Shown here: piece by piece, positions 15,302 through 34,619 of the stretch | Position numbering within the stretch: position 1 is the stretch's first letter | How the letters are laid out: each line of letters starts with the position of its first letter | Assembly (NCBI GenBank): GCA_024276825.1 | Contig: JAJRWI010000007.1 | Location: 17,346-81,345, forward strand | DNA from: an archaeon | GTDB taxonomy: Archaea > Asgardarchaeota > Thorarchaeia > Thorarchaeales > Thorarchaeaceae | Direction: 5' to 3' | Length of the DNA stretch: 64,000 nt | Made by a program: the position numbers and the translations under genes | The notes under the pieces: model-generated | What the model was told of the DNA's origin: nothing | What the model saw: the letters and a program-made list of their open reading frames with translations, nothing else | The model's database searches: none

Positions 15302-17139
15302 TGGCCGATGAAAAGATTGAACTCTTGGTCTGTCTTGGGACAGGCTGTGAGTCTGCAAAGTCAGATGTTCTTTTTGCAAAATTGTCCGACGAGATCAAGA
15401 AGCACAAGTTAGAGAACAAAGCAGCGGTCAAGAGAATCGGATGTCACGGTCTATGCCAGCAGGGACCAGTGATTGCGGTTGAGCCCGAGGGACTGTTTTA
15501 TTGTCAGGTCAAAGAGTCAGACATTGAAGAGATCATACAATCGCATCTCATCAAGGGTAAACCTGTAGAACGACTATTCTACGAACATGATGATGGGACG
15601 AGAATTCCTCATTATAGGGACATTCCATTCTATGCAAAGCAAACGCGAGTTGTGCTCAAGAATTCAGGTCATATTGATCCTAGCAAGATTGATGATTACA
15701 TTGCAGTTGGAGGGTACAAGGGTCTTGAGCGTGCTCTGAAGGAGATGAGCCCAGAAGAAGTCATTGAGGAGGTCTACAACTCCGGACTGCGAGGAAGAGG
15801 CGGTGCAGGTTTCCCAACAGGATTAAAATGGAAATTCGCCCGTTCATCGCCAGGAGATGTCAAATATGCGATATGTAATGCCGATGAGGGAGATCCCGGG
15901 GCATTCATGGACGGTTCAATCCTTGTTGCAGATCCCCATTCCGTTCTGGAGGGGCTTTCAATTGCTGCATATGCCATTGGTGCCCGTGAGGCATTCATTT
16001 ATGTCAGACATGAGTATCCATCTGCAGTTGCTTCATTGAAGAAGGCCTTAAAGCAGTCATACGAGAGAGGATTCCTCGGGGAGAACATTCTTGGTACCGG
16101 TTTTAATCTTGATATTCGAATGATGGAAGGTGCTGGTGCATTCGTTTGTGGTGAGGAAACCGCACTGATGGCATCAATAGAGGGTAAGAGGGGAATGCCG
16201 AGACCGAGACCACCCTTTCCAACAGAGGCAGGTCTCTGGGGCAAGCCAACAGTGATCAATAATGTGAAGTCTTTGGCCGCAGTCGCGATCATTCTAAGAG
16301 AGGGCTGGGAATGGTTCAAATCAATTGGTACCGAGGGAAGTCCTGGGACTGCTATCTTCTCATTGACTGGAAAGGTCAAGAACACAGGACTAGTTGAAGT
16401 CCCCATGGGAGCCACACTGCGACACATCATCTTCGATGTCGGGGGTGGTGTGGGTACTGGCAGGGAGTTCAAGGCAGTTCAGACTGGAGGACCCGCAGGA
16501 GGTTGTCTACCAAAGGAGAAATTGGACCTACCAGTTGACTTTGACTCGCTTCGAGAAGCTGGCGCAATCATGGGTTCTGGTGGAATGATAGTAATGGACG
16601 AAACCACCTGCATGGTCGATGTTGCCCGATACTTCCTGTCATTCACGCAGCAGGAGTCATGCGGGAAGTGTACCCCCTGCAGAATGGGCACACTTGAGAT
16701 GCTAAAGATTCTCGACAAAATAAGAGAGGGCCGTGGCGAAGAGGGTGATATTGAGAAGCTTCTCGAGTTATGTGATACTGTTGTCAAGGGGTCTCTCTGC
16801 GGACTTGGTCAGAACGCACCCAACCCAGTTTTGACAACTATCAAATACTTCAGGGAAGAGTATGAAGCGCATATTCGCGACAAGACATGTCCTGCCATGG
16901 TCTGTCGTGATCTTGTGAAATATGTGATTGATCCTGACTTGTGCATTGGGTGTGGTGCTTGCAGCAGAATTTGCCCAACAGGGGCTGCACAGGGTGAGAA
17001 GAAGCAGGCACATCATATTGAGCAGGACATGTGCATAAAGTGTGGAGCATGCCTTGAGGTCTGTCCTCCAAAGGCCAGTGCTGTTCTAAAGATACCCATC
17101 AGCAAGACACTTGCTGATATTAAAGGAGGTGCTCAATAA
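15301..17139 (+). CDS. nuoF: NuoF/HydB-like FMN/NADH-binding subunit with N-terminal [2Fe-2S] and C-terminal 2x[4Fe-4S]
   Basis: GLRGRGGAGFPTG, NADEGDPGAFMD, GAGAFVCGEETAL, SCGKCTPCR...CGLG, C-terminal CIGCGAC/CIKCGAC. Confidence 0.95.
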   Translation: MADEKIELLVCLGTGCESAKSDVLFAKLSDEIKKHKLENKAAVKRIGCHGLCQQGPVIAVEPEGLFYCQVKESDIEEIIQSHLIKGKPVERLFYEHDDGTRIPHYRDIPFYAKQTRVVLKNSGHIDPSKIDDYIAVGGYKGLERALKEMSPEEVIEEVYNSGLRGRGGAGFPTGLKWKFARSSPGDVKYAICNADEGDPGAFMDGSILVADPHSVLEGLSIAAYAIGAREAFIYVRHEYPSAVASLKKALKQSYERGFLGENILGTGFNLDIRMMEGAGAFVCGEETALMASIEGKRGMPRPRPPFPTEAGLWGKPTVINNVKSLAAVAIILREGWEWFKSIGTEGSPGTAIFSLTGKVKNTGLVEVPMGATLRHIIFDVGGGVGTGREFKAVQTGGPAGGCLPKEKLDLPVDFDSLREAGAIMGSGGMIVMDETTCMVDVARYFLSFTQQESCGKCTPCRMGTLEMLKILDKIREGRGEEGDIEKLLELCDTVVKGSLCGLGQNAPNPVLTTIKYFREEYEAHIRDKTCPAMVCRDLVKYVIDPDLCIGCGACSRICPTGAAQGEKKQAHHIEQDMCIKCGACLEVCPPKASAVLKIPISKTLADIKGGAQ

Positions 17140-19385
17140 TGGCAGTCATCAAGATTGACAATCAGAACATTGAGTTTGAACCAACAATAGAGAAGACTAT
17201 CCTTGATGTTGCAAGAGAGGCCGGAATCTATATTCCCACACTCTGCGACCATGACGAACTCGAGCCCTATGGTGGCTGCCGAATGTGCTTGGTGGATGTA
17301 GAGGGTATGAGGGGCTATGTGCCTGCATGTACTACAACAGCCAAAGATGGTATGGTGGTAAAGACAAGCACTGATGAACTCAACTCGTTAAAGAGAAGGA
17401 TACTACAGCTCCTAATGATTGAACACCCAGTAGGTTGCATACTTTGTGATGAGAGAGAGCAGTGTGACAAGTTCAGACCTCAGGCTCAGAAGGCAGGTCG
17501 CGTCAGTGGATGCTATACATGTCCAAATAGAAATCATTGTGAGCTTGAAGAAGTTGTGAATTTTATTGGCATGAAAACATTGCCCTACGATCCAGAATAC
17601 AGAGATATCCCAGTGGAGCGAGAAGACCCGTTCTTTGATCGCGACTATAACTTATGCATTCTATGTGCAAGGTGTGTACGTGTATGTGATGATGTCAGAG
17701 GTACAGCCGCTATAACAATCGCAAAACGCGGTCATGAGTCCAGAATTGACACAGCATTTGGGACCTCACATGTGGAGTCAGGATGTTGGTTCTGTGGTGC
17801 TTGTGTTGATGTCTGCCCGACAGGGTCATTATCAGCCCGGAAAACAAAGTGGATTGGTATCCCAGAAGAAACTGTTGAGACCACCTGTGTTCTCTGCGGA
17901 ACTGGATGTCAGGTCAATATTGGTGTCAAGTATAACAAGATCATGTGGTCTGAACCCGGTAATAAGGACAGTCCGCCAAATCATCATCATATGTGCGTTC
18001 TTGGAAGATTCTGTATTCCAACCCTTGTGAACACTCCAAGAAGAACCAAGAACCCAATGATAACAAAGGATAGCATTTTGGTGCCAGCCAGTTGGGATGA
18101 AGCAATTAATGAGGCTGCCAGACTTCTGAAGGATACCCCCTCTGAGAAGATAGGCTTTATTGCAAGTCCTCAAATGACTACCGAGGCGGCATACCTGCTT
18201 CAAAAAATAGCGAGGGAAGGTGCTAATACCTCAGCTATTGACTTCATGGGTTCGGACTTTGCAGCGTTGATTCTGGGTAATCTTGCTGATGGACATGACA
18301 AGATTCAGACGCTTGACAAGTTGGACGAGGTTGATTGGATACTCTCAATTGGTGGCGACTTTGTTGTCACACATCAGGTAGTTGCCAAGAGTGTGTACAA
18401 GCAAGTAAGGAGAAATGTCCCTCTAATTCATGTGGGGCCAATCGGCGAGAATCTCAGGAGATGGGCCTCATACCATATCAATGTGCCCATCAAGAAGATT
18501 GAGAATGCCATTTCTAAGCTTGCCCAAAAGAGCATGAGCATCCCGTCTATAACCAAAGAGCAAGCTGAAAGAATTGCATCAATTATCAGCTCTGGCAGGG
18601 GTGCAATAATAGTTGGTTCCAGGATAATGGAAACAAAGAACCCTGACAAATGCTTGAGTGCACTACTGGAGATAATTGGTAGGGAAGGGGTTGTATATCC
18701 ACTTCTTCCGCTCGGCAATGAGTTAGGCCTGATCAAAGCTGGTGCGAGAGCAGACATTCTGCCTGGTCCTGCTGTGAATTCAGAGAAAGGGCTCACTCTT
18801 GGAGAACTCAGAGATAAAGCATCTAAAGGGCAAATCGAACTGCTCTATATCACTGATGGGTCTGTGTCACTCACGGGCTTTGAGAAGGTGGAGAATATCA
18901 TCTATCAGGCACCATATGCATCAGAGTGGACTGACAGAGCCACTGTGCTCTTGCCATCTGCAAGTTTTGCAGAAGAGGACGGGACATTTGTCAACCATGA
19001 GATGCGGGAGCTTAGATTGAAGAGAATCGTAGATCCACCATATCACGCCAGACAGGACTGGGAGATTCTTCAGAATATTGCAAGGAGCATTGGCCTTAGC
19101 AAATCAGATTACAAAAGTCCAGAAGATATTTGGAACGAACTTGAAAAGCAAAAGGCGGGTCTCAAGAAAGACATCTACAAACGCAAATCATGGACTCCCG
19201 CAAGGAAGGATGAAACCCGATGGAATCCCAAGTATCGCGGGGTGGCGATTGCAGAAGTTGTTAAGGACTTGAAGGTCCTCATTGATTCCTTACCAAGCAG
19301 AGAGGTTATTGAGAAGCGGGAATCACTTGATGAACTGCTGGAACGGCTTCAGAGAAAGATTCCTTCAAAGGAGGTGTTAGAATGA
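17139..19385 (+). CDS. NuoG/FdhA-like Fe-S protein with degenerate molybdopterin-oxidoreductase domain
   Basis: [2Fe-2S] PTLC...GGCRMC...C; HPVGCILC; CILCARCVRVC; CWFCGACVDVCP; CVLCGTGC...C; LLPSASFAEEDGTFVN; no Mo-ligand motif. Confidence 0.85.
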   Translation: MAVIKIDNQNIEFEPTIEKTILDVAREAGIYIPTLCDHDELEPYGGCRMCLVDVEGMRGYVPACTTTAKDGMVVKTSTDELNSLKRRILQLLMIEHPVGCILCDEREQCDKFRPQAQKAGRVSGCYTCPNRNHCELEEVVNFIGMKTLPYDPEYRDIPVEREDPFFDRDYNLCILCARCVRVCDDVRGTAAITIAKRGHESRIDTAFGTSHVESGCWFCGACVDVCPTGSLSARKTKWIGIPEETVETTCVLCGTGCQVNIGVKYNKIMWSEPGNKDSPPNHHHMCVLGRFCIPTLVNTPRRTKNPMITKDSILVPASWDEAINEAARLLKDTPSEKIGFIASPQMTTEAAYLLQKIAREGANTSAIDFMGSDFAALILGNLADGHDKIQTLDKLDEVDWILSIGGDFVVTHQVVAKSVYKQVRRNVPLIHVGPIGENLRRWASYHINVPIKKIENAISKLAQKSMSIPSITKEQAERIASIISSGRGAIIVGSRIMETKNPDKCLSALLEIIGREGVVYPLLPLGNELGLIKAGARADILPGPAVNSEKGLTLGELRDKASKGQIELLYITDGSVSLTGFEKVENIIYQAPYASEWTDRATVLLPSASFAEEDGTFVNHEMRELRLKRIVDPPYHARQDWEILQNIARSIGLSKSDYKSPEDIWNELEKQKAGLKKDIYKRKSWTPARKDETRWNPKYRGVAIAEVVKDLKVLIDSLPSREVIEKRESLDELLERLQRKIPSKEVLE

Positions 19386-20254
19386 GCAAGATCATAGAGA
19401 AGGAAGAGGTAGCACCCAACATTCACCGAGTTGTATTTGATGCTCCGAAGATTGCCCGAAAGGTCAAGCCAGGACAGTTCGTCATTGTTATTCCTGATGA
19501 GTTCGGAGAAAGAACACCATTCACAGTTGCAGACTGGGATTCGGAGAGAGGAACAATCACAATATTCTTTCTTGAAGTTGGGGTTTCAACAATGAAGCTC
19601 GCCAAAATGGGCCCAGGGGATTGTGTTCACACTCTGGTGGGACCACTGGGTAAGCCAACAAAGATTGAGAAGTTCGGGACTGTTGTTCTTGGTGGAGGCT
19701 GCTATGGGCTTGGTGCCATCTATCCCTTGGCTAGGGCTTTCAAGGAAGCAGGCAACAAGGTAATTGTAGTCACTGAGGGTAGAACCAGATATGTCCTCTT
19801 CAATCTCAAAAGACTTCAAGAAGTAGCTGATGAGATGATCATTACCACATCAGATGGATCTCTGGGAATAAAGGGTCATGCTCATGATGCTGTCCGAATG
19901 CTTGTTGAACGTGGTGAAAAGATTGACCATGTGCATTTTGTGGGATGCACATACATGATGATGACCGGTTCGAAGACTACCAAGGAGTTAAACATTCCAA
20001 TAGTAGTCAGCCTTGCCGCCCTAATGGTGGATGGTACAGGAATGTGCGGTTGTTGTCGGGTCATTGTTGGCGGAGAAACTAAGTTTGCATGCGTCGATGG
20101 ACCCGATTTTGATGGGCATCTGGTCGACTGGGAGATTGTGGCAGCGCGTGCTGGAGCTTATGTGCCAGAGGAGAACCTAGCGTATCAATTTTATAAGATG
20201 CGAGAAGATGACACCTCGCATGCCAAGTGCGAATGTCAGGAGGAGGTGCAGTGA
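19382..20254 (+). CDS. nfnA: NfnA/SudB-type FAD/NAD-binding [2Fe-2S] subunit
   Basis: PGQFVI, GERTPFTV, GPLG, MVDGTGMCGCCRV...ACVDGPDFDGH. Confidence 0.93.
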   Translation: MSKIIEKEEVAPNIHRVVFDAPKIARKVKPGQFVIVIPDEFGERTPFTVADWDSERGTITIFFLEVGVSTMKLAKMGPGDCVHTLVGPLGKPTKIEKFGTVVLGGGCYGLGAIYPLARAFKEAGNKVIVVTEGRTRYVLFNLKRLQEVADEMIITTSDGSLGIKGHAHDAVRMLVERGEKIDHVHFVGCTYMMMTGSKTTKELNIPIVVSLAALMVDGTGMCGCCRVIVGGETKFACVDGPDFDGHLVDWEIVAARAGAYVPEENLAYQFYKMREDDTSHAKCECQEEVQ

Positions 20255-21706
<1,452 letters not shown>

Positions 21707-25138: not shown

Positions 25139-25316
25139 GTCAGATAATCCCTAGAATTTATCACTATTGAACTTTCACACTTTGCCGTTTAAAGATACGC
25201 TAATACGGACTTGATACCACGGTTATTAGTCAGCTACTGCTTAATAACGGGTGATATTGGCGCGATTCTCACACACTTGCCGAATGAATAATATAGACTG
25301 ACGAGTTTGTTTCGTA

Positions 25317-26390
25317 ATGGAGGAATCAGAGTTATATTCAGAAATGGTGGAGCTAATAGACTCGGACGAGTTCAAGAAAGAGAAGATAAGTCAGTATTCC
25401 ATCAACATTGAGGCAGAGAACTTTCTTTCTACACTTGAGAGGTATGCAAGTGTTAAGAGCCATCTTGAAGAGATTGGACTATCGTTTAATGGCAGGGTGC
25501 TCATTATTGGCACTTCAGGCACAGATTTTCGAGCATTCGCGACCAAGATTGCAAAAGACAGGCAATACAAGATTGCAACGCTGAGGATGAATCAGATACT
25601 TGGTAATGTTGACAGGCAACTTGAAGGGATCAGACTACTGTTTGAGATGGCAAGAAGAAATGCACCTTGCATCCTTAGTCTTGAACAGGTCGATGTCATT
25701 GCTCCCAGCAAATCATCATCTGGAGCACTATTAATGCAAGAACTCAATAGTATAACATGGAGCGAAAATGAGATAGTAACAATTGCCACAACCACTCAAC
25801 CAGATAATATTGATAGAGATCTCTTGGAGTTATTCGGAAGTATCATAGTGGTTGAAGGAACCACTCTTGATGACCGCGTGCGTGTATTTGAATCTGTCTT
25901 AAGGAATAGAGAACATATGCCAGTGACAACCCTGGCTGAGCTGACTAGGGGTTGGAGCTTTATAGAAGTCATTCATCTTGCAATTAATATATTGATCAAA
26001 ACATCTGATGATGAACAAAGGCAAACGAGAGAGGCAATTGAACGCCTGATTGAGGAGTCAAGAGTCATTCCAATTAGCAGAGCAGGTCTCATTGCATCAA
26101 TCACCGAAAGAATCAGAGGGCAAGTAGTGGGTAGGTCAAAGCACATTGATGTTGAGTATCCTGAAGAGTTCGTAGAACAGCTGTATCTTGAGGCAGTTGC
26201 AGACGATTACTCGAGTACTCAGAGAGTCATTGATACTTTGAACTCAAACATGCCACTCTCAGAGGAAGACTTGAGATTCTTAACACGGTATCCATTCATT
26301 TTGGCTGGGACATCTGAAGAAAGAACGATGAATCTGATTAAGGCTAAGAGGACAATCGATAGACTCCGAAGAATAATGGGAAGAAAATAG
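25317..26390 (+). CDS. Degenerate (predicted inactive) classical-clade AAA ATPase-like protein
   Basis: VLIIGTSGTDFR, LFEMARRNAPCILSLEQVD and IATTTQPDNIDRDLL align with Walker A, Walker B and SRH positions but lack the catalytic residues. Confidence 0.75.
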   Translation: MEESELYSEMVELIDSDEFKKEKISQYSINIEAENFLSTLERYASVKSHLEEIGLSFNGRVLIIGTSGTDFRAFATKIAKDRQYKIATLRMNQILGNVDRQLEGIRLLFEMARRNAPCILSLEQVDVIAPSKSSSGALLMQELNSITWSENEIVTIATTTQPDNIDRDLLELFGSIIVVEGTTLDDRVRVFESVLRNREHMPVTTLAELTRGWSFIEVIHLAINILIKTSDDEQRQTREAIERLIEESRVIPISRAGLIASITERIRGQVVGRSKHIDVEYPEEFVEQLYLEAVADDYSSTQRVIDTLNSNMPLSEEDLRFLTRYPFILAGTSEERTMNLIKAKRTIDRLRRIMGRK

Positions 26391-26404
26391 AGGGAATGTG
26401 AATA

Positions 26405-29400
26405 TTGAGTGAGAGTAGGGTGTTCATAGAGTCTGTTCGACTGCACAATTTTCTCTCATTTTATGATGAGACCGTCGAGCTCGATAGGGGTCTCACCGTG
26501 ATAGTTGGGCATAACGGCTCAGGCAAGACCTCAATATTCCAAGGCATCAAATTTGCAATGGGATCCAATCAGCGAGATGAGCGATATCCCAAATGGAGCG
26601 ATTTTGTAAGGAATGGCGCATCAATGGCAGAAGTTGAGGTCGTCTTGAACATTAATGGAACAAAACGAAGAATACTTCGGAAAATTGACAGAAGGGGGCA
26701 TCCACAGCCATATATTGATGGGAAGCGTGTGAAGGCCGCATATCTTCAGGAGTTTGTTTCATCATTGAAGTTTGATGTGAACAATAGTCTAGTATTCATG
26801 CCACAGGAGAAGATTAACTCGCTTCGCGATATGAACCCCATAACTGTCAGAAAACTCATTGAGGAAGGAACTGGACTTGATGCTCTCAGGGAGAGAATTC
26901 TTGCTCAAGAAGTCAATGTTGACCTGAATAGAACCAGACTTCAACAGACTCTGGAAGAATCACATATAGTAGAAAAAGAACTTGAATACATTCGAGAGAA
27001 AGTAGAGCGGCTGAAGAAAAAGAGAGAATTGCAGAAAAGAGAGAATGTGCTTGAAACAGAAGCAAAATGGGCCCTGTTTATTGATCGGACAGATAGGGTT
27101 GAAGAAACCAGAGAGAAGATTGAGGAACAGGAGCAGGGGCTATTAGAGATCTTTGAGAGATCCAAAGGCCTTCAGAGTGAGATTAAACAAAGAGAAGAAA
27201 CAATCTCAGAGATTCAAGAGAAAATAGATAGTCTGAGAAAAGAACAGATGGACATCCAATTGAAGATCAATAGAAAGGAAAATGAGATAGAAAGCAAGAG
27301 AAGTGAAGACAGACGGAATCTAGAGGAACTGAAAAAGCTTCAGGGATTGTTAAAGAAGAACGAAAGAACACTCAAAGATAGAAAAAAACGACTTGTTCAA
27401 ATTGCTAAGAGAAGAGAGAAGCTCAAACTTAGGGCTGAAACTTTGAAGGAGTCAATTGAAAAATACGAGAGGGACCTTGAAGGCGTAGAGGCTGCACTGG
27501 ACAGATTTGCAGAATGGACCCAGAAGAGAAATGAGATGCAAGGTAAACTAAATGCAGTACTGTATGATAAAAAGAACAAGGAGTTTAAACTACGAAGCCT
27601 GAAAGAAAAGCTTCTGATCGAACAGGCAGAACTGGAAGATATCGAGCGGAGCTGGCAGGGAATCTGGTCATCCCTTGAAGATCTTGACGAACGAGAACTC
27701 AATCGAAGAATGGGAGCGATTGAGAGAGAGATCGAGTCATTAAATGAACAGAGAATCAGTATGCTAAGCAGGCTATCTGATATCAAGAAGCAAATCAGTA
27801 CAATAAAAGCTCAACTCGCTGAGAAGGACAATCGAATTCCTGAGGCCGTTCGATCACTCAAAAGAGCCATTGATGAACATCAATTAGAGAGTGTCTATGG
27901 TCCCATCTCAGATCTTTTGGGAGGAGTGAGGGAGTTTGCAGAACTGCTTGAATGGGTGTTTCCAGATAATTCGATATTCTCATTCATCGTGACTGATAAA
28001 GCAGATGGCATTCTAGTTCAGAAACTGCGTGATGGAATCGGTGCTCCATCACCAATTGTCATAGTCAAAGGCAATGCCACTGCGGAGCCCATTAAGTTGC
28101 CAAAAGACCCATCTATAATCGGACCATTATGGGACCTCTTGGAACTTGACTCACATCTGGCAGAGGTATTAAAAGCGGCATATGGAGAGTTCATTGTTGT
28201 AAAGACAAATCAAGCCGCCAAGCGAATTGCATCAAGAATTGGGATGAATGTGGTTTCTTTAAAGGGAGCAGTCATAATTCAGAGAGAAGCTTCTCTAATC
28301 AGTCTGCCAGTCATTGAACCCAGCGGGATATTGGTCACTGCCCCCTTGCAGACAAGACTAAAAGCGCTTCAGAGAGAAGAGGTCAGGGTCAATAAGCAAA
28401 TCACCGAGATAATGAGAAAAACGGAGGAGTTGAGAGAAGAGGGCGAGCAAGTCAGAAACACACTCAGTCAGATCCGTTCTAGGACTGAGGTCTGGGAGAA
28501 GAGAAGGGTATTGTCTGGAAGCATAACAACACTACAAGAACGCATTGCAGTTCTTAATGATGAACTTGTAGAAATCGATAAGCAACATGGTGAGTATGAG
28601 CGAGGTCTCAGAAGGCTTGACGAATCACAGCCCCCAGAGAGAGAGAAACTTGTGAGCAGACAAAGGGCATTAAACTTCAAACTCCGTGAGCTTGCCAAGG
28701 AGCAGCTAGGTATCGAACATAGTTTCGACTCATTATTTGACGAGGAAGATGATATTGAAAATAAGATTAAGCAGCTTAAAGAAGACAATGAGATGTTATC
28801 AGAGCAGATTATTGAAATCCGTGAGAGCATTGATAATTCAGAGTCAGCTATATCTGATATAATGCAAGAGATTGAAATGTTACAACAATCATTCGATAAT
28901 ACCAATATCGAGATAATTAGATTAAAGGAAGAACTGGTGGAGAATGAGGAGGAGTTGTCAGAACTACGTGAAAGACTGGTGGAGTTGAATGTTGCAATCC
29001 GCACACATAAGACCGATGTGGCCCATCTAAGAAGACAACTCACGATTCTTGAAGACGAACTTGAACGGCTCAGTTCAGAACTCAAAGAGAAGACTCGGCC
29101 AGAGAGTACAAGGCCTTTGGATCAGGTTCAGGAAGAACTTGTGGAAGTAAAAATACTATTGAAAAGTTATGAAGATGTTTCTGAATCAGTGGCTCACAAG
29201 CAAGAGAAACTGACAGAGCGGCTGAACAGACTTGTGGAGAAATCGGCAGAACTCCAAAGGGAGCTGGAAGAGGCAGAACTTGCTGTTAAGAATATCAAGG
29301 AGCAATATCATAACGAAATGGGCGAAATGTTGGCTGACATTCAGAATAAGATTAATGCAATCCTCGAACGAATTGACTTCCCAGGAACTGTCAGACTTGT

Positions 29401-29773
29401 ACTTAAAAACATGGGCAACGAGTATGGTGTTGAGATCAAGTCAAACATCAAAGACACAGAGTATAAAGACATCAATGCCTGTTCAGGTGGGGAGAGGTCA
29501 CTCTTGTCCCTTGGATTAATCCTCGCACTTCAAGAGTTCAATGCTGCCCCCACATACGCCTTTGATGAGATTGATGTCTTTCTTGATGCCACCAATACCG
29601 AGAACGTCGCATCGCTCCTTCATAATGCTTCTCTTGCAAGTCAGTTTATCGTGTTTACACCTGCAAGAAGTACTATCTTTCTTAGATATGCAGACAAGTT
29701 ACTGGGAGTTGCGCAAGGGAGAAACAGATCATCAGTAATAATTGAGGGACCAAGGTGTGGGAGGAATGACTAA
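26405..29773 (+). CDS. SMC-family ATPase, Smc5/6-like
   Basis: Walker A GHNGSGKT, Q-loop FMPQEKI, long coiled coils, central hinge VYGPISDL, signature SGGERS, Walker B/D-loop AFDEIDVFLD. Confidence 0.92.
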   Translation: MSESRVFIESVRLHNFLSFYDETVELDRGLTVIVGHNGSGKTSIFQGIKFAMGSNQRDERYPKWSDFVRNGASMAEVEVVLNINGTKRRILRKIDRRGHPQPYIDGKRVKAAYLQEFVSSLKFDVNNSLVFMPQEKINSLRDMNPITVRKLIEEGTGLDALRERILAQEVNVDLNRTRLQQTLEESHIVEKELEYIREKVERLKKKRELQKRENVLETEAKWALFIDRTDRVEETREKIEEQEQGLLEIFERSKGLQSEIKQREETISEIQEKIDSLRKEQMDIQLKINRKENEIESKRSEDRRNLEELKKLQGLLKKNERTLKDRKKRLVQIAKRREKLKLRAETLKESIEKYERDLEGVEAALDRFAEWTQKRNEMQGKLNAVLYDKKNKEFKLRSLKEKLLIEQAELEDIERSWQGIWSSLEDLDERELNRRMGAIEREIESLNEQRISMLSRLSDIKKQISTIKAQLAEKDNRIPEAVRSLKRAIDEHQLESVYGPISDLLGGVREFAELLEWVFPDNSIFSFIVTDKADGILVQKLRDGIGAPSPIVIVKGNATAEPIKLPKDPSIIGPLWDLLELDSHLAEVLKAAYGEFIVVKTNQAAKRIASRIGMNVVSLKGAVIIQREASLISLPVIEPSGILVTAPLQTRLKALQREEVRVNKQITEIMRKTEELREEGEQVRNTLSQIRSRTEVWEKRRVLSGSITTLQERIAVLNDELVEIDKQHGEYERGLRRLDESQPPEREKLVSRQRALNFKLRELAKEQLGIEHSFDSLFDEEDDIENKIKQLKEDNEMLSEQIIEIRESIDNSESAISDIMQEIEMLQQSFDNTNIEIIRLKEELVENEEELSELRERLVELNVAIRTHKTDVAHLRRQLTILEDELERLSSELKEKTRPESTRPLDQVQEELVEVKILLKSYEDVSESVAHKQEKLTERLNRLVEKSAELQRELEEAELAVKNIKEQYHNEMGEMLADIQNKINAILERIDFPGTVRLVLKNMGNEYGVEIKSNIKDTEYKDINACSGGERSLLSLGLILALQEFNAAPTYAFDEIDVFLDATNTENVASLLHNASLASQFIVFTPARSTIFLRYADKLLGVAQGRNRSSVIIEGPRCGRND

Positions 29774-30407
29774 AGCAGTGATGCAAGATATTGCCAAAAG
29801 AGTCTTCGCGCTATCAAAGCAAGTTCAGCAGGGGGAATTGGATCCTCTAGATGTGCCACTTACAGAAGAATATCAGACTCTATGTCGTTTAATTGCAGAT
29901 GTCAGCGACCGGCTGGATATTGATGAGATGCTAAATGCATTGCTTAATCAAAAGGTCATAAGGATACAGGAGTTAGCAAGAGTACTTGCAACACCTGACA
30001 TCTATGTTGAATATCTCAGATCAATCCCTGTCAGAAGGCTGGCCAATTTGATGTCTTACAAGAGACCATTGGTCATTGCAAGACTAGATCTTGATAGTAT
30101 GACGGCATCACTCACAAGAGTAATGGCAATTATAGATTCAATCTCTGCAGATCCTCCCGAAGAGATAGTCCCCGAAATTTCAGAAGTGCCTCCTGATTTC
30201 AAGATTGACTCTGAGAGTGCCCTTTTCATTGACGAGATGAGGGAGTTTGAAGAAACCATTCCAAGGGGAGTGAGAGTGCCATTAAACACCATCATTTTTT
30301 CGGAGGATGAGGAGGTTCATCTGAGACGATTTCTGTTTGTGATACTCCTGATAAGTAGAGGAGATCTGGTGTACTACAAAGAAACACAAGAAATCATGCG
30401 AGAATGA
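29766..30407 (+). CDS. Kleisin (ScpA/Nse4-like) subunit
   Basis: Overlaps the SMC stop by 8 nt. N-terminal GELDPLDV resembles archaeal ScpA GEIDPWDI; C-terminal RRFLFVILLISRGDL resembles the kleisin C-terminal winged helix. Confidence 0.72.
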   Translation: MTKAVMQDIAKRVFALSKQVQQGELDPLDVPLTEEYQTLCRLIADVSDRLDIDEMLNALLNQKVIRIQELARVLATPDIYVEYLRSIPVRRLANLMSYKRPLVIARLDLDSMTASLTRVMAIIDSISADPPEEIVPEISEVPPDFKIDSESALFIDEMREFEETIPRGVRVPLNTIIFSEDEEVHLRRFLFVILLISRGDLVYYKETQEIMRE

Positions 30408-30419
30408 GGAGATAAAGAC

Positions 30420-30932
30420 TTGAACGAGTTCACCATATTGATGAAACTTCTCACAAGAACGGGCGACCCCATTGGGTCATCAATGGAGGACATGCTGGAA
30501 GCATTGGATGTGCCCGAGGACGTGGGACCCCAGTATGTATATTCTCTATTGAAGGGCCTACATCTTAAGCTCAAGGAGATAGGGCTCACAATTCAATTTA
30601 ATCCATTAAGTCAGGTTTACTATATCGACACTGTTACTAGCTTCGAAGCAATTCCTGACGAGTCGGGTCTGGCTGATAGATTGGCAGCAACGTTGTTGAT
30701 TATCATCACATTGGCCTTTCAAGAGGGGGGGTGGGTTTCATTGGGAAGAATCAAGGAGTTTAGAAGAAAGAGTTTGGCTGGAATTCGTGCTGATATTAGA
30801 GATCTTGAGAGTCTGGGCTATGTTGAGTTTGACAGGATTAATGAGCAGGTCAGGCCTGGGACAAGGATCCCATTTGAAATAGACTATGAAGAGTTCTTTA
30901 GAAGGCTCTCAGATTTCAAAGAAGATTCATGA
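30420..30932 (+). CDS. Kite (tandem winged-helix; ScpB/Nse1/Nse3-like) subunit
   Basis: 170 aa with two WH-like halves (LKLKEIGLTIQF...YYI; IRDLESLGYV...RPGTRIPFE); TTG start after GAGGAG; follows the SMC and kleisin genes. Confidence 0.68.
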   Translation: MNEFTILMKLLTRTGDPIGSSMEDMLEALDVPEDVGPQYVYSLLKGLHLKLKEIGLTIQFNPLSQVYYIDTVTSFEAIPDESGLADRLAATLLIIITLAFQEGGWVSLGRIKEFRRKSLAGIRADIRDLESLGYVEFDRINEQVRPGTRIPFEIDYEEFFRRLSDFKEDS

Positions 30933-31730: not shown

Positions 31731-34619
31731 CTATAGAACGTATGACCATATATAATGTACGACCGATTCAGCAGCATCGGGAAAAATCTCGATGCAGATG
31801 ACATCGGTTTCGGCAGTAATTGTTACATTGAACCAGTAATCAGTTGGTGAATAGGAGAAGTCTACCCAAGAAGATCCAGTCCAAACATGGCCAAAGACCG
31901 ATTCTGTAGTATTGAAGAACAGAGAGTAGTTCTGACCAATGACCACTGTCGAGTTGATGAATACACTAACACCATGTGTTATTGTGTATGGAAGACTGAC
32001 TCCAAAATACTCGGTTGTGTCAATCGTGTGCCATAGTGGGTTACTAGGACTATCGCCAGAGATCGGTTGATGACTAAGAGAGATGTTTCCTGTACCATCT
32101 CCAATGTAGACCACACGAATGATATATTGCTGTTCTGGGTTGTATTCAGGTTCACCTTCAATAGGAATCTCGAGATATCTGGGCCATTCATTAAGCAAAT
32201 ACACCCCCTGAGTAGTCAATAGAGGGGTTGGATTTCCCGGGTGATATAACTCCATGAACCAGTCTGCAGAGCCTATATAGTCAGAGCCCACATTCATTTC
32301 AAACAGATATCTGTGGGTGTTATCGACTGTGCAGTTGTAATAATGCGAGTCACTATCCCATTCATTACTGTCCAATGGCTTCACTTCATCCACATTAATC
32401 TCTTCGGGAGTTTCGAAAGAAGTGCCATTCTTTGGAGTATAAGTGAGGGTCACTGTACCACGACAATATGTATAGGGATTTCCTTGAGTAAAGACAAGTG
32501 TATAGTCGCCTACCAACCAAATGGGGTCCCACATTATTTCTGGGAAGTCGTCACATGTTTCTGATATTTGGGTGACTATTGATCCATTATGAATTAGAGT
32601 GAAATTGATCCACCCACCTGGATAACTCTCAGTCATATTGAAGGCTATGCAAGGCGTTGAGAGTGTGTCAGAATAGTTCAGCCTGAACCAGTAGCTCCAT
32701 GGAAAATCAAAAGGATCTGTAATGTTATTGAATAAGGGCGGAAACTGTATCTCTTCAGGCTCGTTCTCATTGAGAACCTTGGGATTTGTCTGAGAAGGTA
32801 TCTCAAGGGGTGTGATAGTCATGTTGATCTTTTCAGTACCATTCGCCTTGACGAGAGTCTTAATTATCAAGATGTAGTCAAGTTTCTTGTCGTGATTTTT
32901 AGGATTAACAGGCCAAGGTGAAACAGTATCAATAATTGAGAAGGGAGTATTGAAAGCCTGCTTTCTCGAGCCGTCTTTGTATACATAAACAATCGTGATC
33001 TTCCAATGATTTCCAGGTTTCACTCCAAAATTTATGGAGAAGGGTTTTGTTCCGTTTATCTTGACCTTTTCAAGACCACTGCCCTCTGGCACCACACCAA
33101 TCGAGTCACTGACCGTGTTGTTTGTATACGTGAGGTTGGCATGCGCTGTGCGTTCAGGTACACCGTTGTTTGTGATTGCGTCAGTCAAGAGCCAAGCATA
33201 GTAGTCTGCAATTATGCGTTCCCAAGACATCTCAAGAACCTTGGCAATGGCATCACGGGGATCAACATCTTTTGAGTTGTTTGCAAAGTTGTCTATGGAA
33301 CTATTGAATATTTTCAATATGTTTTCAAGACCATAGCGTTCTCTGAGAAACTTGCTGAAGAGGTATGATCCGATATAATCATCATAGTAGCCGCCCCAAC
33401 CTTTGAAGAGCGATCGGTTGATGTCTTTGTAATGTGTGTACCAGTTGTGATCCTCAACCCGTTTGAACTCGTCCTGAATCTCCTTGTTCGTCAGATTGAA
33501 GTTGGCCTTTGTAGACTCAATGCCCCAGTAGGTGGCCTGACCCTCAATCCAGAACTTATTCTTTGTTGGACAGTGATCAGCATAGTCAGAGCCTTGCTTA
33601 AAGGTCTGATATTGAAACAAATGCATAAGTTCGTGTTCGCAGACATACTTTAGATCTATGTCTGACTTCATCTTTCCAAGGTCAATCCAGATGATACCTT
33701 TATGGGATGCAGCACCAACAGTTTCACTGGTGTCACCTTTCTTGATGATTATTGCAAACTTGTTGTTTTTCCAGGTCTTGGGCCCCATCTTGAAGCCGTT
33801 CTTCAGGTAGAAGTTAAGTGAATATTTGATATGCTTTGTAACATTCTTCACAACATCAGCAGAGACTCCACTTCCCTTGATTATCTTGAAGGTCTCGTTA
33901 CTATGAAGAGCAGTCTTATCAATAATGCCCTCATCAATTACATCTTGGTTAAGACCGTTCTGAATCTCAATGATATATCCAGAGTCGGTGTAAACAGGAT
34001 AGATGTTCGGCATGCTGGGAGTTGGAACTGAATTCATCCACTCATTCGAACTGTCAGAGTCATTTCCAAACAACGATATCGAACCAGTATTGCAAGCGAT
34101 CCCATCATCATTCTCTGACCAATCACTATATATTACCTGAGAATTGCCTTCAGAATATCTCATAAAATCGATGACATTTCCTGTTGAGTCAAAGAGACCT
34201 ATCTCATCTCCCTCTGGATCAAGCAAGTTCTCGGATAGTCCAAGATGCAATGCAACAGTCCCGTCAGATGCATTAGTATCATCAGTCCCAGTTCCAGAAT
34301 ATATTGCGATATAGACTTCAGCCCGTAGGCCCGAAACAGTAGGAATCTTGATCAGACCCTCGCCATCGAAGGTGGTAAAGTACCAATTTTCAATGGTGTC
34401 ACTCCGAAATGAAACAGGAATATAGATTTCAAAGAACTCGGTCGAGTCAGATTCATTACAATATATCTCACTAATCCAGACAGTACCCTTCACCTTAGAG
34501 GGAGAATCAGAGGGGAAGGGAGTAGGGGAAGGATTGTAACCAACCATCATAAAGACTGCAGTAGTGCCAGCAATCAGAATGATAGCAATAATAAGCAAGG
34601 AGAGTTTTTTTGATGGCAC
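31731..34619 (-). CDS. Secreted/membrane-anchored protein: lamin-tail-like domain, zinc metallopeptidase (HExxH...E) and C-terminal beta-rich domains
   Basis: N-terminal TM; WISEIY...EFFEIY...DEIGLFD...VID...PTPS (LTD-like); HELMH and WIEGQA. Confidence 0.72.
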   Translation of the reverse strand: MPSKKLSLLIIAIILIAGTTAVFMMVGYNPSPTPFPSDSPSKVKGTVWISEIYCNESDSTEFFEIYIPVSFRSDTIENWYFTTFDGEGLIKIPTVSGLRAEVYIAIYSGTGTDDTNASDGTVALHLGLSENLLDPEGDEIGLFDSTGNVIDFMRYSEGNSQVIYSDWSENDDGIACNTGSISLFGNDSDSSNEWMNSVPTPSMPNIYPVYTDSGYIIEIQNGLNQDVIDEGIIDKTALHSNETFKIIKGSGVSADVVKNVTKHIKYSLNFYLKNGFKMGPKTWKNNKFAIIIKKGDTSETVGAASHKGIIWIDLGKMKSDIDLKYVCEHELMHLFQYQTFKQGSDYADHCPTKNKFWIEGQATYWGIESTKANFNLTNKEIQDEFKRVEDHNWYTHYKDINRSLFKGWGGYYDDYIGSYLFSKFLRERYGLENILKIFNSSIDNFANNSKDVDPRDAIAKVLEMSWERIIADYYAWLLTDAITNNGVPERTAHANLTYTNNTVSDSIGVVPEGSGLEKVKINGTKPFSINFGVKPGNHWKITIVYVYKDGSRKQAFNTPFSIIDTVSPWPVNPKNHDKKLDYILIIKTLVKANGTEKINMTITPLEIPSQTNPKVLNENEPEEIQFPPLFNNITDPFDFPWSYWFRLNYSDTLSTPCIAFNMTESYPGGWINFTLIHNGSIVTQISETCDDFPEIMWDPIWLVGDYTLVFTQGNPYTYCRGTVTLTYTPKNGTSFETPEEINVDEVKPLDSNEWDSDSHYYNCTVDNTHRYLFEMNVGSDYIGSADWFMELYHPGNPTPLLTTQGVYLLNEWPRYLEIPIEGEPEYNPEQQYIIRVVYIGDGTGNISLSHQPISGDSPSNPLWHTIDTTEYFGVSLPYTITHGVSVFINSTVVIGQNYSLFFNTTESVFGHVWTGSSWVDFSYSPTDYWFNVTITAETDVICIEIFPDAAESVVHYIWSYVL

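Follow-up and report, generated by a model that had tools for sequence, protein, structure and literature searches.

What does a AAA protein without its catalytic residues do at the head of an operon for an SMC (structural maintenance of chromosomes) complex? The question is raised by a 64,000-nucleotide stretch of contig JAJRWI010000007.1 (assembly GCA_024276825.1; referred to here as the window), part of a Thorarchaeota (Asgard) genome that is 2.9 Mb in size and 98% complete. An open reading frame (ORF) on the plus strand of the window, 25317-26390, encodes the pseudo-AAA protein P0001, hereafter X, and is followed directly by the gene for an SMC paralogue. An earlier note on this DNA had described X as a catalytically dead AAA protein and had proposed that it serves the SMC complex. 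SMC complexes are described as an SMC dimer with kleisin and kite or hawk subunits, and the place and time at which SMC rings load are set by additional factors, among them Nse5/6, Scc2/4 and MatP. Here we report that X keeps the AAA fold, is under purifying selection and is tied to the SMC paralogue across Asgard archaea, and we consider it probable, with moderate confidence, that X is an accessory factor of the SMC complex encoded behind it.

X keeps the AAA fold and lacks the catalytic residues

X matched the Pfam AAA family (PF00004) over residues 61-179 with 43 bits against a cut-off of 21 (E 6.8e-11), and its best NCBIfam matches were CDC48, PAN and FtsH, all far under their own cut-offs. 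The AlphaFold2 (AF2) model, built on 31 orthologues (predicted local-distance difference test score, pLDDT, 87), contains the alpha/beta core and the four-helix lid expected of a member of the PF00004 clade. After the lid come one helix, a disordered stretch (residues 270-278) and a helical C-terminal domain (CTD, residues 281-357). Searching with this model in Foldseek returned classical AAA structures only, with E down to 3e-13. In VIA-align, residues 3-260 gave Z scores of 18-19 to PAN, Vps4, Cdc48/p97 and spastin, and 222-250 residues could be aligned with classical AAA structures at a root-mean-square deviation of 3.3-4.4 A and 15-18% identity. Since the Z scores are tied, X is not assignable to one subfamily. 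The framework that the earlier note had listed as retained, namely VLIIG, LFEMARRNAPCIL, IATT..PD.ID and DDRVRVF, was found complete.

The residues of X were mapped by alignment to the D2 domain of the same genome's own CDC48. In place of the Walker A consensus GxxGxGK[ST], X has GTSGTDFR, without the Lys, and in place of the Walker B consensus hhhhDE it has ILSLEQ. The sensor-1 Asn is replaced by T160 (ATN to TTT) and both Arg fingers are gone (LRPGRF to LEL--F), with E170 standing for the first and a two-residue deletion removing the second. Nor is the aromatic-hydrophobic-Gly motif of pore loop 1 present, KWVG of CDC48 D2 being QILG in X. The losses claimed in the earlier note (a Walker A without Lys, a Walker B LSLEQVD with Asp-Glu changed to Glu-Gln, no sensor-1 Asn and no arginine fingers) were thus all borne out by the comparison. 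As judged from sequence and model, X keeps the AAA fold but has lost the residues for ATP binding, hydrolysis or substrate threading. With these motifs missing, neither a nucleotide-driven hexamer function nor substrate threading would therefore be expected.

The degenerate motifs are conserved and under purifying selection

Seventeen database orthologues, 34-55% identical, have 42 invariant columns, and G65, G68, D70 and F71 of the dead P-loop are invariant among them. The two acidic Walker B columns vary between orthologues, the first being E, Q, D, G, N or P in this set. The same motif lesions were present in all 31 aligned orthologues and in 51 further ones from Thorarchaeota, and R187 and L221 of the lid are invariant across the 31 sequences. 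Because the Walker A Lys occurs in 0 of these 31, the degenerate motifs, as the alignment has them, are neither chance nor a sequencing artefact.

The reading frame of X was unbroken in every genome searched. The ratio of nonsynonymous to synonymous substitution rates (dN/dS; Nei-Gojobori method, 35 pairs with dS 0.1-1.5 among 51 Thorarchaeota orthologues) was lowest in the CTD, at 0.038, and came to 0.106 in the lid and 0.113 in the dead AAA core; with 0.098 over the whole gene, X is under strong purifying selection. The profiles of Thorarchaeota X and of the Lokiarchaeia-type X aligned in hhalign with 98.9% probability (E 4e-17) over 301 columns, from the P-loop remnant to the C-terminus, and a replacement loop G-T-D-[F/I] is common to both classes. 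The loss of the Lys therefore predates the split between Thorarchaeota and Lokiarchaeia-type lineages, and the replacement loop is itself conserved.

X is linked to an SMC paralogue across Asgard archaea

X was found directly 5' of the SMC paralogue, and co-directional with it, in all 28 loci that have both genes on the contig, from at least eight Asgard families. The gap between the two genes was -38 to +57 nt in 27 of the 28 loci; in the one exception, the SMC ORF is called about 85 codons short. By this count the linkage described in the earlier note holds. Two apparent X-SMC fusions in Lokiarchaeia-type genomes (open frames of 1589 and 1563 aa, in genome G182 at locus L067 and genome G099 at locus L068) are unlikely to be real: L067:9383-9406 is a TGA stop followed by a 21-nt spacer, all in one frame, and at L068 the ORF calls give two genes 57 nt apart.

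The wider neighbourhood was compared as well (f, g, L and G numbers are our labels for families, genera, loci and genomes). In the 13 fully covered loci of the Thorarchaeales order, a MoxR-type AAA+ gene and a VWA-domain gene are divergent from X-SMC-kleisin-kite-Zn-ribbon, and the partial loci agree. In one locus (L018) the kite and Zn-ribbon genes are inverted together. Four genomes of f7, f8 and f9 encode, at the position of X, a protein of 271-437 aa that shares only the lid and the CTD; in the f7/f8 loci (L026-L028) MoxR-VWA lies co-directionally 5' of this gene, whereas the f9 locus (L025) showed no such pair. The order X-SMC-kleisin-kite recurred in ten more loci from f7, f9 and f24, with MoxR-VWA directly 5' of X in the f7 locus (L073) and absent within about 8 kb in the nine from f9 and f24; L130 and L132 also support this synteny. 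Across the set, MoxR-VWA accompanies the SMC cluster in three layouts: divergent in Thorarchaeota, co-directional 5' of X in f7, f8 and a Helarchaeales locus (L130), and directly 3' of the kite gene in f20 (L133). No MoxR-VWA pair was seen within about 8 kb of X-SMC in the loci of the Lokiarchaeia-type family f9, of f24 or of Jordarchaeia.

A CTD profile was used to survey 301 sampled Asgard genomes, and 136 of them had exactly one copy. The positive families were f1 (60/76), f2 (1/1), f7 (3/5), f8 (1/1), f9 (62/68), f24 (7/7) and f29 (1/2); the profile found nothing in f5 (0/28), f12 (0/19), f22 (0/21), f14 (0/11) or f27 (0/11). A kite profile marked the same families with nearly the same counts, with additional weaker matches in f16, f19, f20 and f28. 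An SMC profile separated genomes with the paralogue (E <1e-190) from those with canonical SMC only (E about 1e-80 to 1e-95), and the paralogue families were again the same. In Thorarchaeaceae, X, the kite and the second SMC are missing together from four genomes of the genus g4 (87-96% complete), and a fifth has all three. The remaining discordances between X, kite and SMC lie mostly at contig ends. A pattern scan of species genomes found X in records of Thorarchaeota and other Asgard archaea only, a search with the Jordarchaeia protein brought up its orthologues first and generic CDC48 and FtsH after them, and the matches listed for the kite profile were all from Thorarchaeota.

Among 14 taxa of the Thorarchaeales order, the pairwise distances of X correlated best with those of SMC, with r 0.86 and, controlling for MoxR, a partial r of 0.71; the corresponding partial values were 0.69 for SMC-kleisin, 0.69 for SMC-kite, 0.47 for X-VWA and 0.06 for X-Zn-ribbon. 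This covariation is exploratory, the taxa being related and the pairs non-independent.

The C-terminal domain is the signature of the family

In alignments of 17 and of 31 sequences, no block of X is better conserved than the CTD. A CTD-only AF2 model built from 60 sequences reached pLDDT 91.5. Foldseek found no matching fold in the PDB (best E 2.3), the best VIA-align score was Z 5.3 to unrelated helical segments, which is noise level for helical models, and the CTD profile found nothing under E 0.04 among PDB sequences. The earlier note's description of a novel helical C-terminal domain therefore agrees with these PDB searches, by fold and by sequence. Compared in hhalign with the profiles of the operon's own proteins, the CTD gave a probability of 0.4% to the kleisin and also less than 1% to the SMC.

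Among 1.84 billion representative proteins, the CTD profile retrieved 104 clusters in which the domain is always C-terminal, in proteins of about 270-630 aa, and in the ten clusters looked up every named member is from Asgard archaea. The same search found no eukaryotic homologue and no sequence relative outside Asgard-sized archaeal proteins. By these profile matches, the CTD is the signature of the X family.

Intermediate and shrunken relatives form a graded series

In Jordarchaeia/Freyarchaeum (f19), where the CTD profile missed the gene, a 459-aa AAA protein overlaps the start of the SMC paralogue, with kleisin and kite following. Its alignment with X spans residues 19-355 and takes in the CTD; the protein matches PF00004 with E 5e-21 and has an intact Walker A (GRSGTGKT) together with a Walker B that reads D-N. 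This relative also carries an N-terminal extension of about 120 residues that looks like a coiled coil. The SMC paralogue beside it (L131:7070-9577, G060) is only 835 aa long, with head and hinge both detected; its coiled-coil arms must therefore be much shorter.

Two other relatives are similar in kind: a 560-aa protein of f28 has Walker A GPSGNGKT and Walker B E-N, and the Helarchaeales protein P0052, whose gene overlaps an SMC gene, has GPLGTGKS and D-P. Among the listed representatives of the CTD family, P0052 is the only one with a Walker A Lys. No family member has the catalytic Walker B Glu. The earlier note had named intact Walker motifs in orthologues as a mark of recent decay; none are intact in Thorarchaeota, and what the deeper relatives keep is Walker A, never the Walker B Glu. 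Since these relatives have Walker A but not the Glu, the ancestor would have been a nucleotide-binding AAA protein already without its catalytic Glu.

At the other end of the series, the AAA core of the Lokiarchaeia-type X, which we take to be the 400-440-aa forms, has no Pfam match. These proteins (e.g. L025:8211-9524) have two insertions, a long one of charged, low-complexity sequence that follows the helix preceding the Walker B position, and another before the CTD. The shortest forms (271-315 aa) have a truncated core and retain lid and CTD, as do all family members; the short Asgard homologues match Pfam AAA_lid_3 with E 2e-7 to 2e-5. Read from these sequences, the family looks like a classical AAA protein in which hydrolysis was lost first and nucleotide binding next; the 271-315-aa forms then lost part of the core as well. 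Ancestral X was probably a switch that bound ATP without hydrolysing it, and independence of the nucleotide came later, in the Thorarchaeota and Lokiarchaeia-type lineages. The series, from Walker A kept (Jordarchaeia, Helarchaeales) through motifs lost (Thorarchaeota) and core barely recognisable (Lokiarchaeia-type) to core truncated, offers natural variants for studying the change from a nucleotide switch to a static regulator.

Organization of the second SMC operon

The SMC encoded behind X has its Walker A, Q-loop, signature (CSGGERS), Walker B (FDEID) and hinge all intact (Table 1). A phmmer search of PDB sequences placed it ambiguously, with the Pyrococcus Smc head at E 2e-29 and Smc5/Smc6 at E 2e-13 to 5e-13. 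The profile of the kleisin-like protein (19 orthologues) weakly matched the C-terminal winged helix of Pyrococcus ScpA (4i99_C, E 0.0044; ScpA 5xns_C, E 0.14), and that of the kite-like protein matched winged-helix regulators only. The 128-aa Zn-ribbon protein is 62-83% identical across Thorarchaeota loci, the highest identity in the cluster.

A canonical SMC (1209-aa frame, hinge 123 bits), ScpA (245 aa) and ScpB (182 aa) are encoded together on contig C52 (G000, ~16000-20700; L029, L031-L033), and this genome therefore has two complete SMC-kleisin-kite sets. Thus the earlier note was right to make X the first gene, but the operon it heads is of a second type, with an SMC, kleisin and kite of its own that are distinct from canonical SMC-ScpAB. 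Downstream of X, the three genes make up an operon already in the literature, the SMC5/6-related SMC-kleisin-kite operon found in TACK and Asgard archaea (Yoshinaga and Inagaki 2021, PMC8665677; van Hooff et al., bioRxiv 10.1101/2024.01.07.573240); the label "SMC5/6-related" is taken over from these two studies.

Table 1. Features of gene X and of its neighbourhood, in window coordinates
Feature	Position	Strand	Description
VWA-domain gene, 569 aa	21710..23419	-	Pfam VWA_2 E 8e-4, below cut-off; always follows MoxR
MoxR-type AAA+ gene, 568 aa	23432..25138	-	Pfam AAA_5, AAA_lid_2; divergent from X
TATA-like box AATAATATAG	25287..25296	+	Read from the sequence; about 25 nt 5' of the ATG of X
Pseudo-AAA gene X (P0001)	25317..26390	+	ATG start, TAG stop, 357 aa; first gene of the operon
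Walker A remnant, G65-T-S-G-T-D-F-R72	25509..25532	+	CDC48 D2 GPPGTGKT to GTSGTDFR; Asp-Phe for Gly-Lys
Walker B remnant, I119-L-S-L-E-Q-V-D126	25671..25694	+	FFDEID to SLEQVD; Glu-Gln (E123-Q124) for Asp-Glu
Second region of homology, remnant	25794..25835	+	CDC48 D2 ATNRADIIDPAVLRPGRF vs X TTTQPDNIDRDLLEL--F
AAA lid (four-helix) subdomain, residues 184-250	25866..26066	+	AF2 helices 184-248
CTD, residues 281-357 (about 80 aa)	26157..26387	+	Two long helices as a hairpin, short connecting helices, basic last helix
Spacer X-SMC, 14 nt	26391..26404	+	Shine-Dalgarno (SD)-like GAGGGA overlapping the stop codon of X
Second SMC paralogue, 1122 aa	26405..29773	+	Pfam SMC_N, SMC_hinge; TIGR02169 309 bits vs cut-off 729
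Kleisin-like gene, about 213-221 aa	29742..30407	+	Start not certain; overlap with the 3' end of the SMC gene; conserved position; no Pfam match
Kite-like gene, 170 aa, winged-helix	30420..30932	+	Conserved position; family distribution as X
Zn-ribbon and winged helix-turn-helix (wHTH)-like gene, 128 aa	30988..31374	+	Pfam TFIIB Zn-ribbon E 1.9e-7; closes the Thorarchaeota cluster

The 178-nt divergent intergenic region between the MoxR start (25138, minus strand) and X holds the TATA-like box, and its position suggests that AATAATATAG is the promoter of a leaderless or short-leader operon transcript. X ends 14 nt before the SMC start, a TTG at 26405, as the earlier note had it, and the layout of spacer and SD-like sequence suggests translational coupling of X to the SMC gene. 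X is plausibly the first cistron of an X-SMC-kleisin-kite-Zn-ribbon/wHTH transcript.

Two candidate identities for X as a known SMC subunit were rejected. It is not a kleisin (ScpA/Nse4), the AF2 model showing AAA and a helical hairpin without a winged helix and the operon having a separate kleisin-like gene (29742-30407). By the same fold it is neither a kite (ScpB, MukE, Nse1/3) nor a hawk (HEAT), and the kite-like gene (30420-30932) is also separate.

In genus g6 (L011:1453-3869 of G007; e.g. G217), about 2.4-3.7 kb is inserted between the kleisin-like and kite-like genes. Just 3' of the cluster in the window, a 962-aa protein (31731-34619, minus strand) matches a lamin-tail domain (E 2e-7) and DUF6055, both below the Pfam cut-offs.

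Discussion

We regard it as likely, with the moderate confidence stated at the outset, that X is a non-catalytic, AAA-derived accessory factor dedicated to the second SMC-kleisin-kite complex of Asgard archaea. The role of "loader, adaptor or regulator" put forward in the earlier note is one that we, too, infer from genomic context. The CTD is probably a docking module, because it is the most conserved part of X and is retained where the AAA core shrinks; its hairpin would dock X onto the SMC complex, and the AAA-shaped body would act as a rigid scaffold or steric regulator and not as a motor. X might in this way gate SMC head engagement or loading, comparably to Nse5/6 in Smc5/6.

Several points weigh against this proposal. 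The case for X acting in the SMC complex is built from genomic context and co-evolution, and the conserved MoxR-VWA pair nearby offers X an alternative partner. The CTD has no recognisable relative, so that its docking role is a guess, and with no eukaryotic homologue of the CTD the link to Smc5/6 biology is by analogy alone. The survey that ties X to this operon covers Asgard genomes. A complex prediction of full-length X with the N-half of the SMC head, the C-half of the head and the hinge scored 0.00 and returned no verdict; it speaks neither for nor against binding.

A bolder form of the proposal would make X a true fourth subunit, an ATP-binding switch turned into a nucleotide-independent gate. 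Such a gate, docked through its hairpin to heads or arms of the SMC, would control ring loading or head engagement and would be the functional forerunner of the Nse5/6-type loader, by which it was replaced at eukaryogenesis; in some lineages X would also be the handle that a MoxR-VWA remodeller uses to open or remove the ring. We think it rather unlikely that all of this holds.

Among the alternatives, X could be chiefly an adaptor that presents the SMC ring, or a subunit of it, to the neighbouring MoxR AAA+/VWA pair as an ATP-driven remodeller that assembles, opens or removes the ring, without any regulation of the SMC ATPase. MoxR/VWA pairs are known generally as remodelling or maturation modules, this one stays near the cluster in three arrangements, and the distances of X and VWA covary (partial r 0.47). 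The f9, f24 and Jordarchaeia loci, however, keep X without MoxR-VWA within about 8 kb, so the X-SMC link is broader than the MoxR link, and X covaries more with SMC than with VWA. On balance we judge an adaptor of this kind improbable.

Smaller still is the chance that the cluster, X included, is a restriction system against episomes or viruses, of the Wadjet or Smc5/6-restriction kind, with X as sensor or effector-adaptor. Restriction of extrachromosomal DNA is known from both eukaryotic Smc5/6 and bacterial Wadjet, and in PADLOC the SMC matches the defence models LmuB, JetC and mad3, while X (E 4e-8) and its Jordarchaeia relative (E 3e-32) match the anti-phage AAA protein IetA. Yet these PADLOC and NCBIfam matches are to generic ABC and AAA folds and lie far below thresholds, Pfam and NCBIfam searches found no nuclease or protease effector in the cluster, and the genes are single-copy in a neighbourhood conserved across genera, with identity falling with taxonomic distance, unlike mobile defence islands. 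The identification of X itself as IetA/IteA of the Iet system was rejected: the PADLOC match (IetA, E 3.9e-8) covers the AAA core only, and with the NCBIfam model IteA X reaches 30 bits where the cut-off is 510. No IetS-like protease partner was detected in the operon with Pfam or NCBIfam.

We give similarly little credence to the view that X merely shares a transcript with SMC and works apart from the SMC complex, perhaps as a chaperone-like or regulatory protein that is not an enzyme. Membership of an operon is by itself no proof of a complex, and the support for an interaction is contextual. Against mere co-transcription, the adjacency survives both rearrangement of the rest of the cluster and divergence to about 20% identity, X is lost together with SMC and kite, and its rate covariation with SMC is as strong as that of bona fide subunits. 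Finally, the idea that X is what decay has left of a formerly active AAA ATPase, without present function, as the destruction of every catalytic motif could suggest, has a negligible chance of being right, such a dying gene being excluded by the selection and conservation data: intact frames, dN/dS of 0.10 overall and 0.11 in the dead AAA core, 42 columns invariant in 17 orthologues, and lesions older than the split between Thorarchaeota and Lokiarchaeia-type lineages.

If X is indeed an accessory factor of the second SMC complex, a dead AAA fold would for the first time be seen to serve as an SMC partner. Of the eukaryotic SMC complexes, Smc5/6 is the least understood, and its closest prokaryotic model is, to our knowledge, the SMC5/6-related complex of Asgard archaea. 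The parts list of that complex would change with a fourth gene of such strict linkage, strong constraint and Asgard-wide range. Cultured Lokiarchaeia should carry the gene for X, which would make the hypothesis directly testable.

Comparison with known systems

X has the same core and lid fold as the classical AAA proteins (PAN/Rpt, Cdc48/p97 D2, Vps4, spastin, FtsH), with about 240 aligned residues, and the framework motifs hhhhG before the P-loop, FE.A...P before Walker B, PD.ID and DR..I are common to both. Unlike them, it is without the Walker A Lys, the Walker B Asp-Glu, the sensor-1 Asn, the Arg fingers and the aromatic pore loop, and its unique CTD stands in place of a protease, a beta-domain or an HbYX tail.

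Some catalytically inactive AAA+ subunits serve as scaffolds within ATPase assemblies, and among the Foldseek matches of the X model were PDB entries 8xqw and 8xku of the Ycf2-FtsHi motor, with its inactive FtsHi subunits. FtsHi and X are alike in being classical AAA folds with degenerate nucleotide sites that selection maintains, in FtsHi as structural parts of a larger machine and in X probably likewise. The FtsHi pseudo-subunits, however, form a ring with active AAA paralogues, whereas the X cluster encodes no active classical AAA partner; the putative partner of X is an ABC-type ATPase, the SMC.

As published, the SMC5/6-related operon has three subunits only (PMC8665677; bioRxiv 10.1101/2024.01.07.573240), and the main texts and supplements of the two papers, in the parts accessible to us, make no mention of an AAA or pseudo-AAA gene; a full-text search of the literature found no other paper describing X. 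Here, in contrast, a fourth gene heads the operon in every examined Asgard lineage that has X. The three-gene operon was thus already known, and the conserved pseudo-AAA partner gene in front of it is the new part.

The eukaryotic Smc5/6 complex has in Nse5/Nse6 a loader and ATPase inhibitor (Taschner et al. 2021, PMC8327961). X may resemble it by analogy, as a non-SMC, non-kleisin, non-kite, non-enzymatic accessory module that belongs to the Smc5/6-type complex alone and may control head engagement and loading. Nse5/6 are alpha-solenoid proteins (van Hooff et al., bioRxiv 10.1101/2024.01.07.573240), whereas X combines an AAA fold with a helical hairpin, and no homology between them is claimed.

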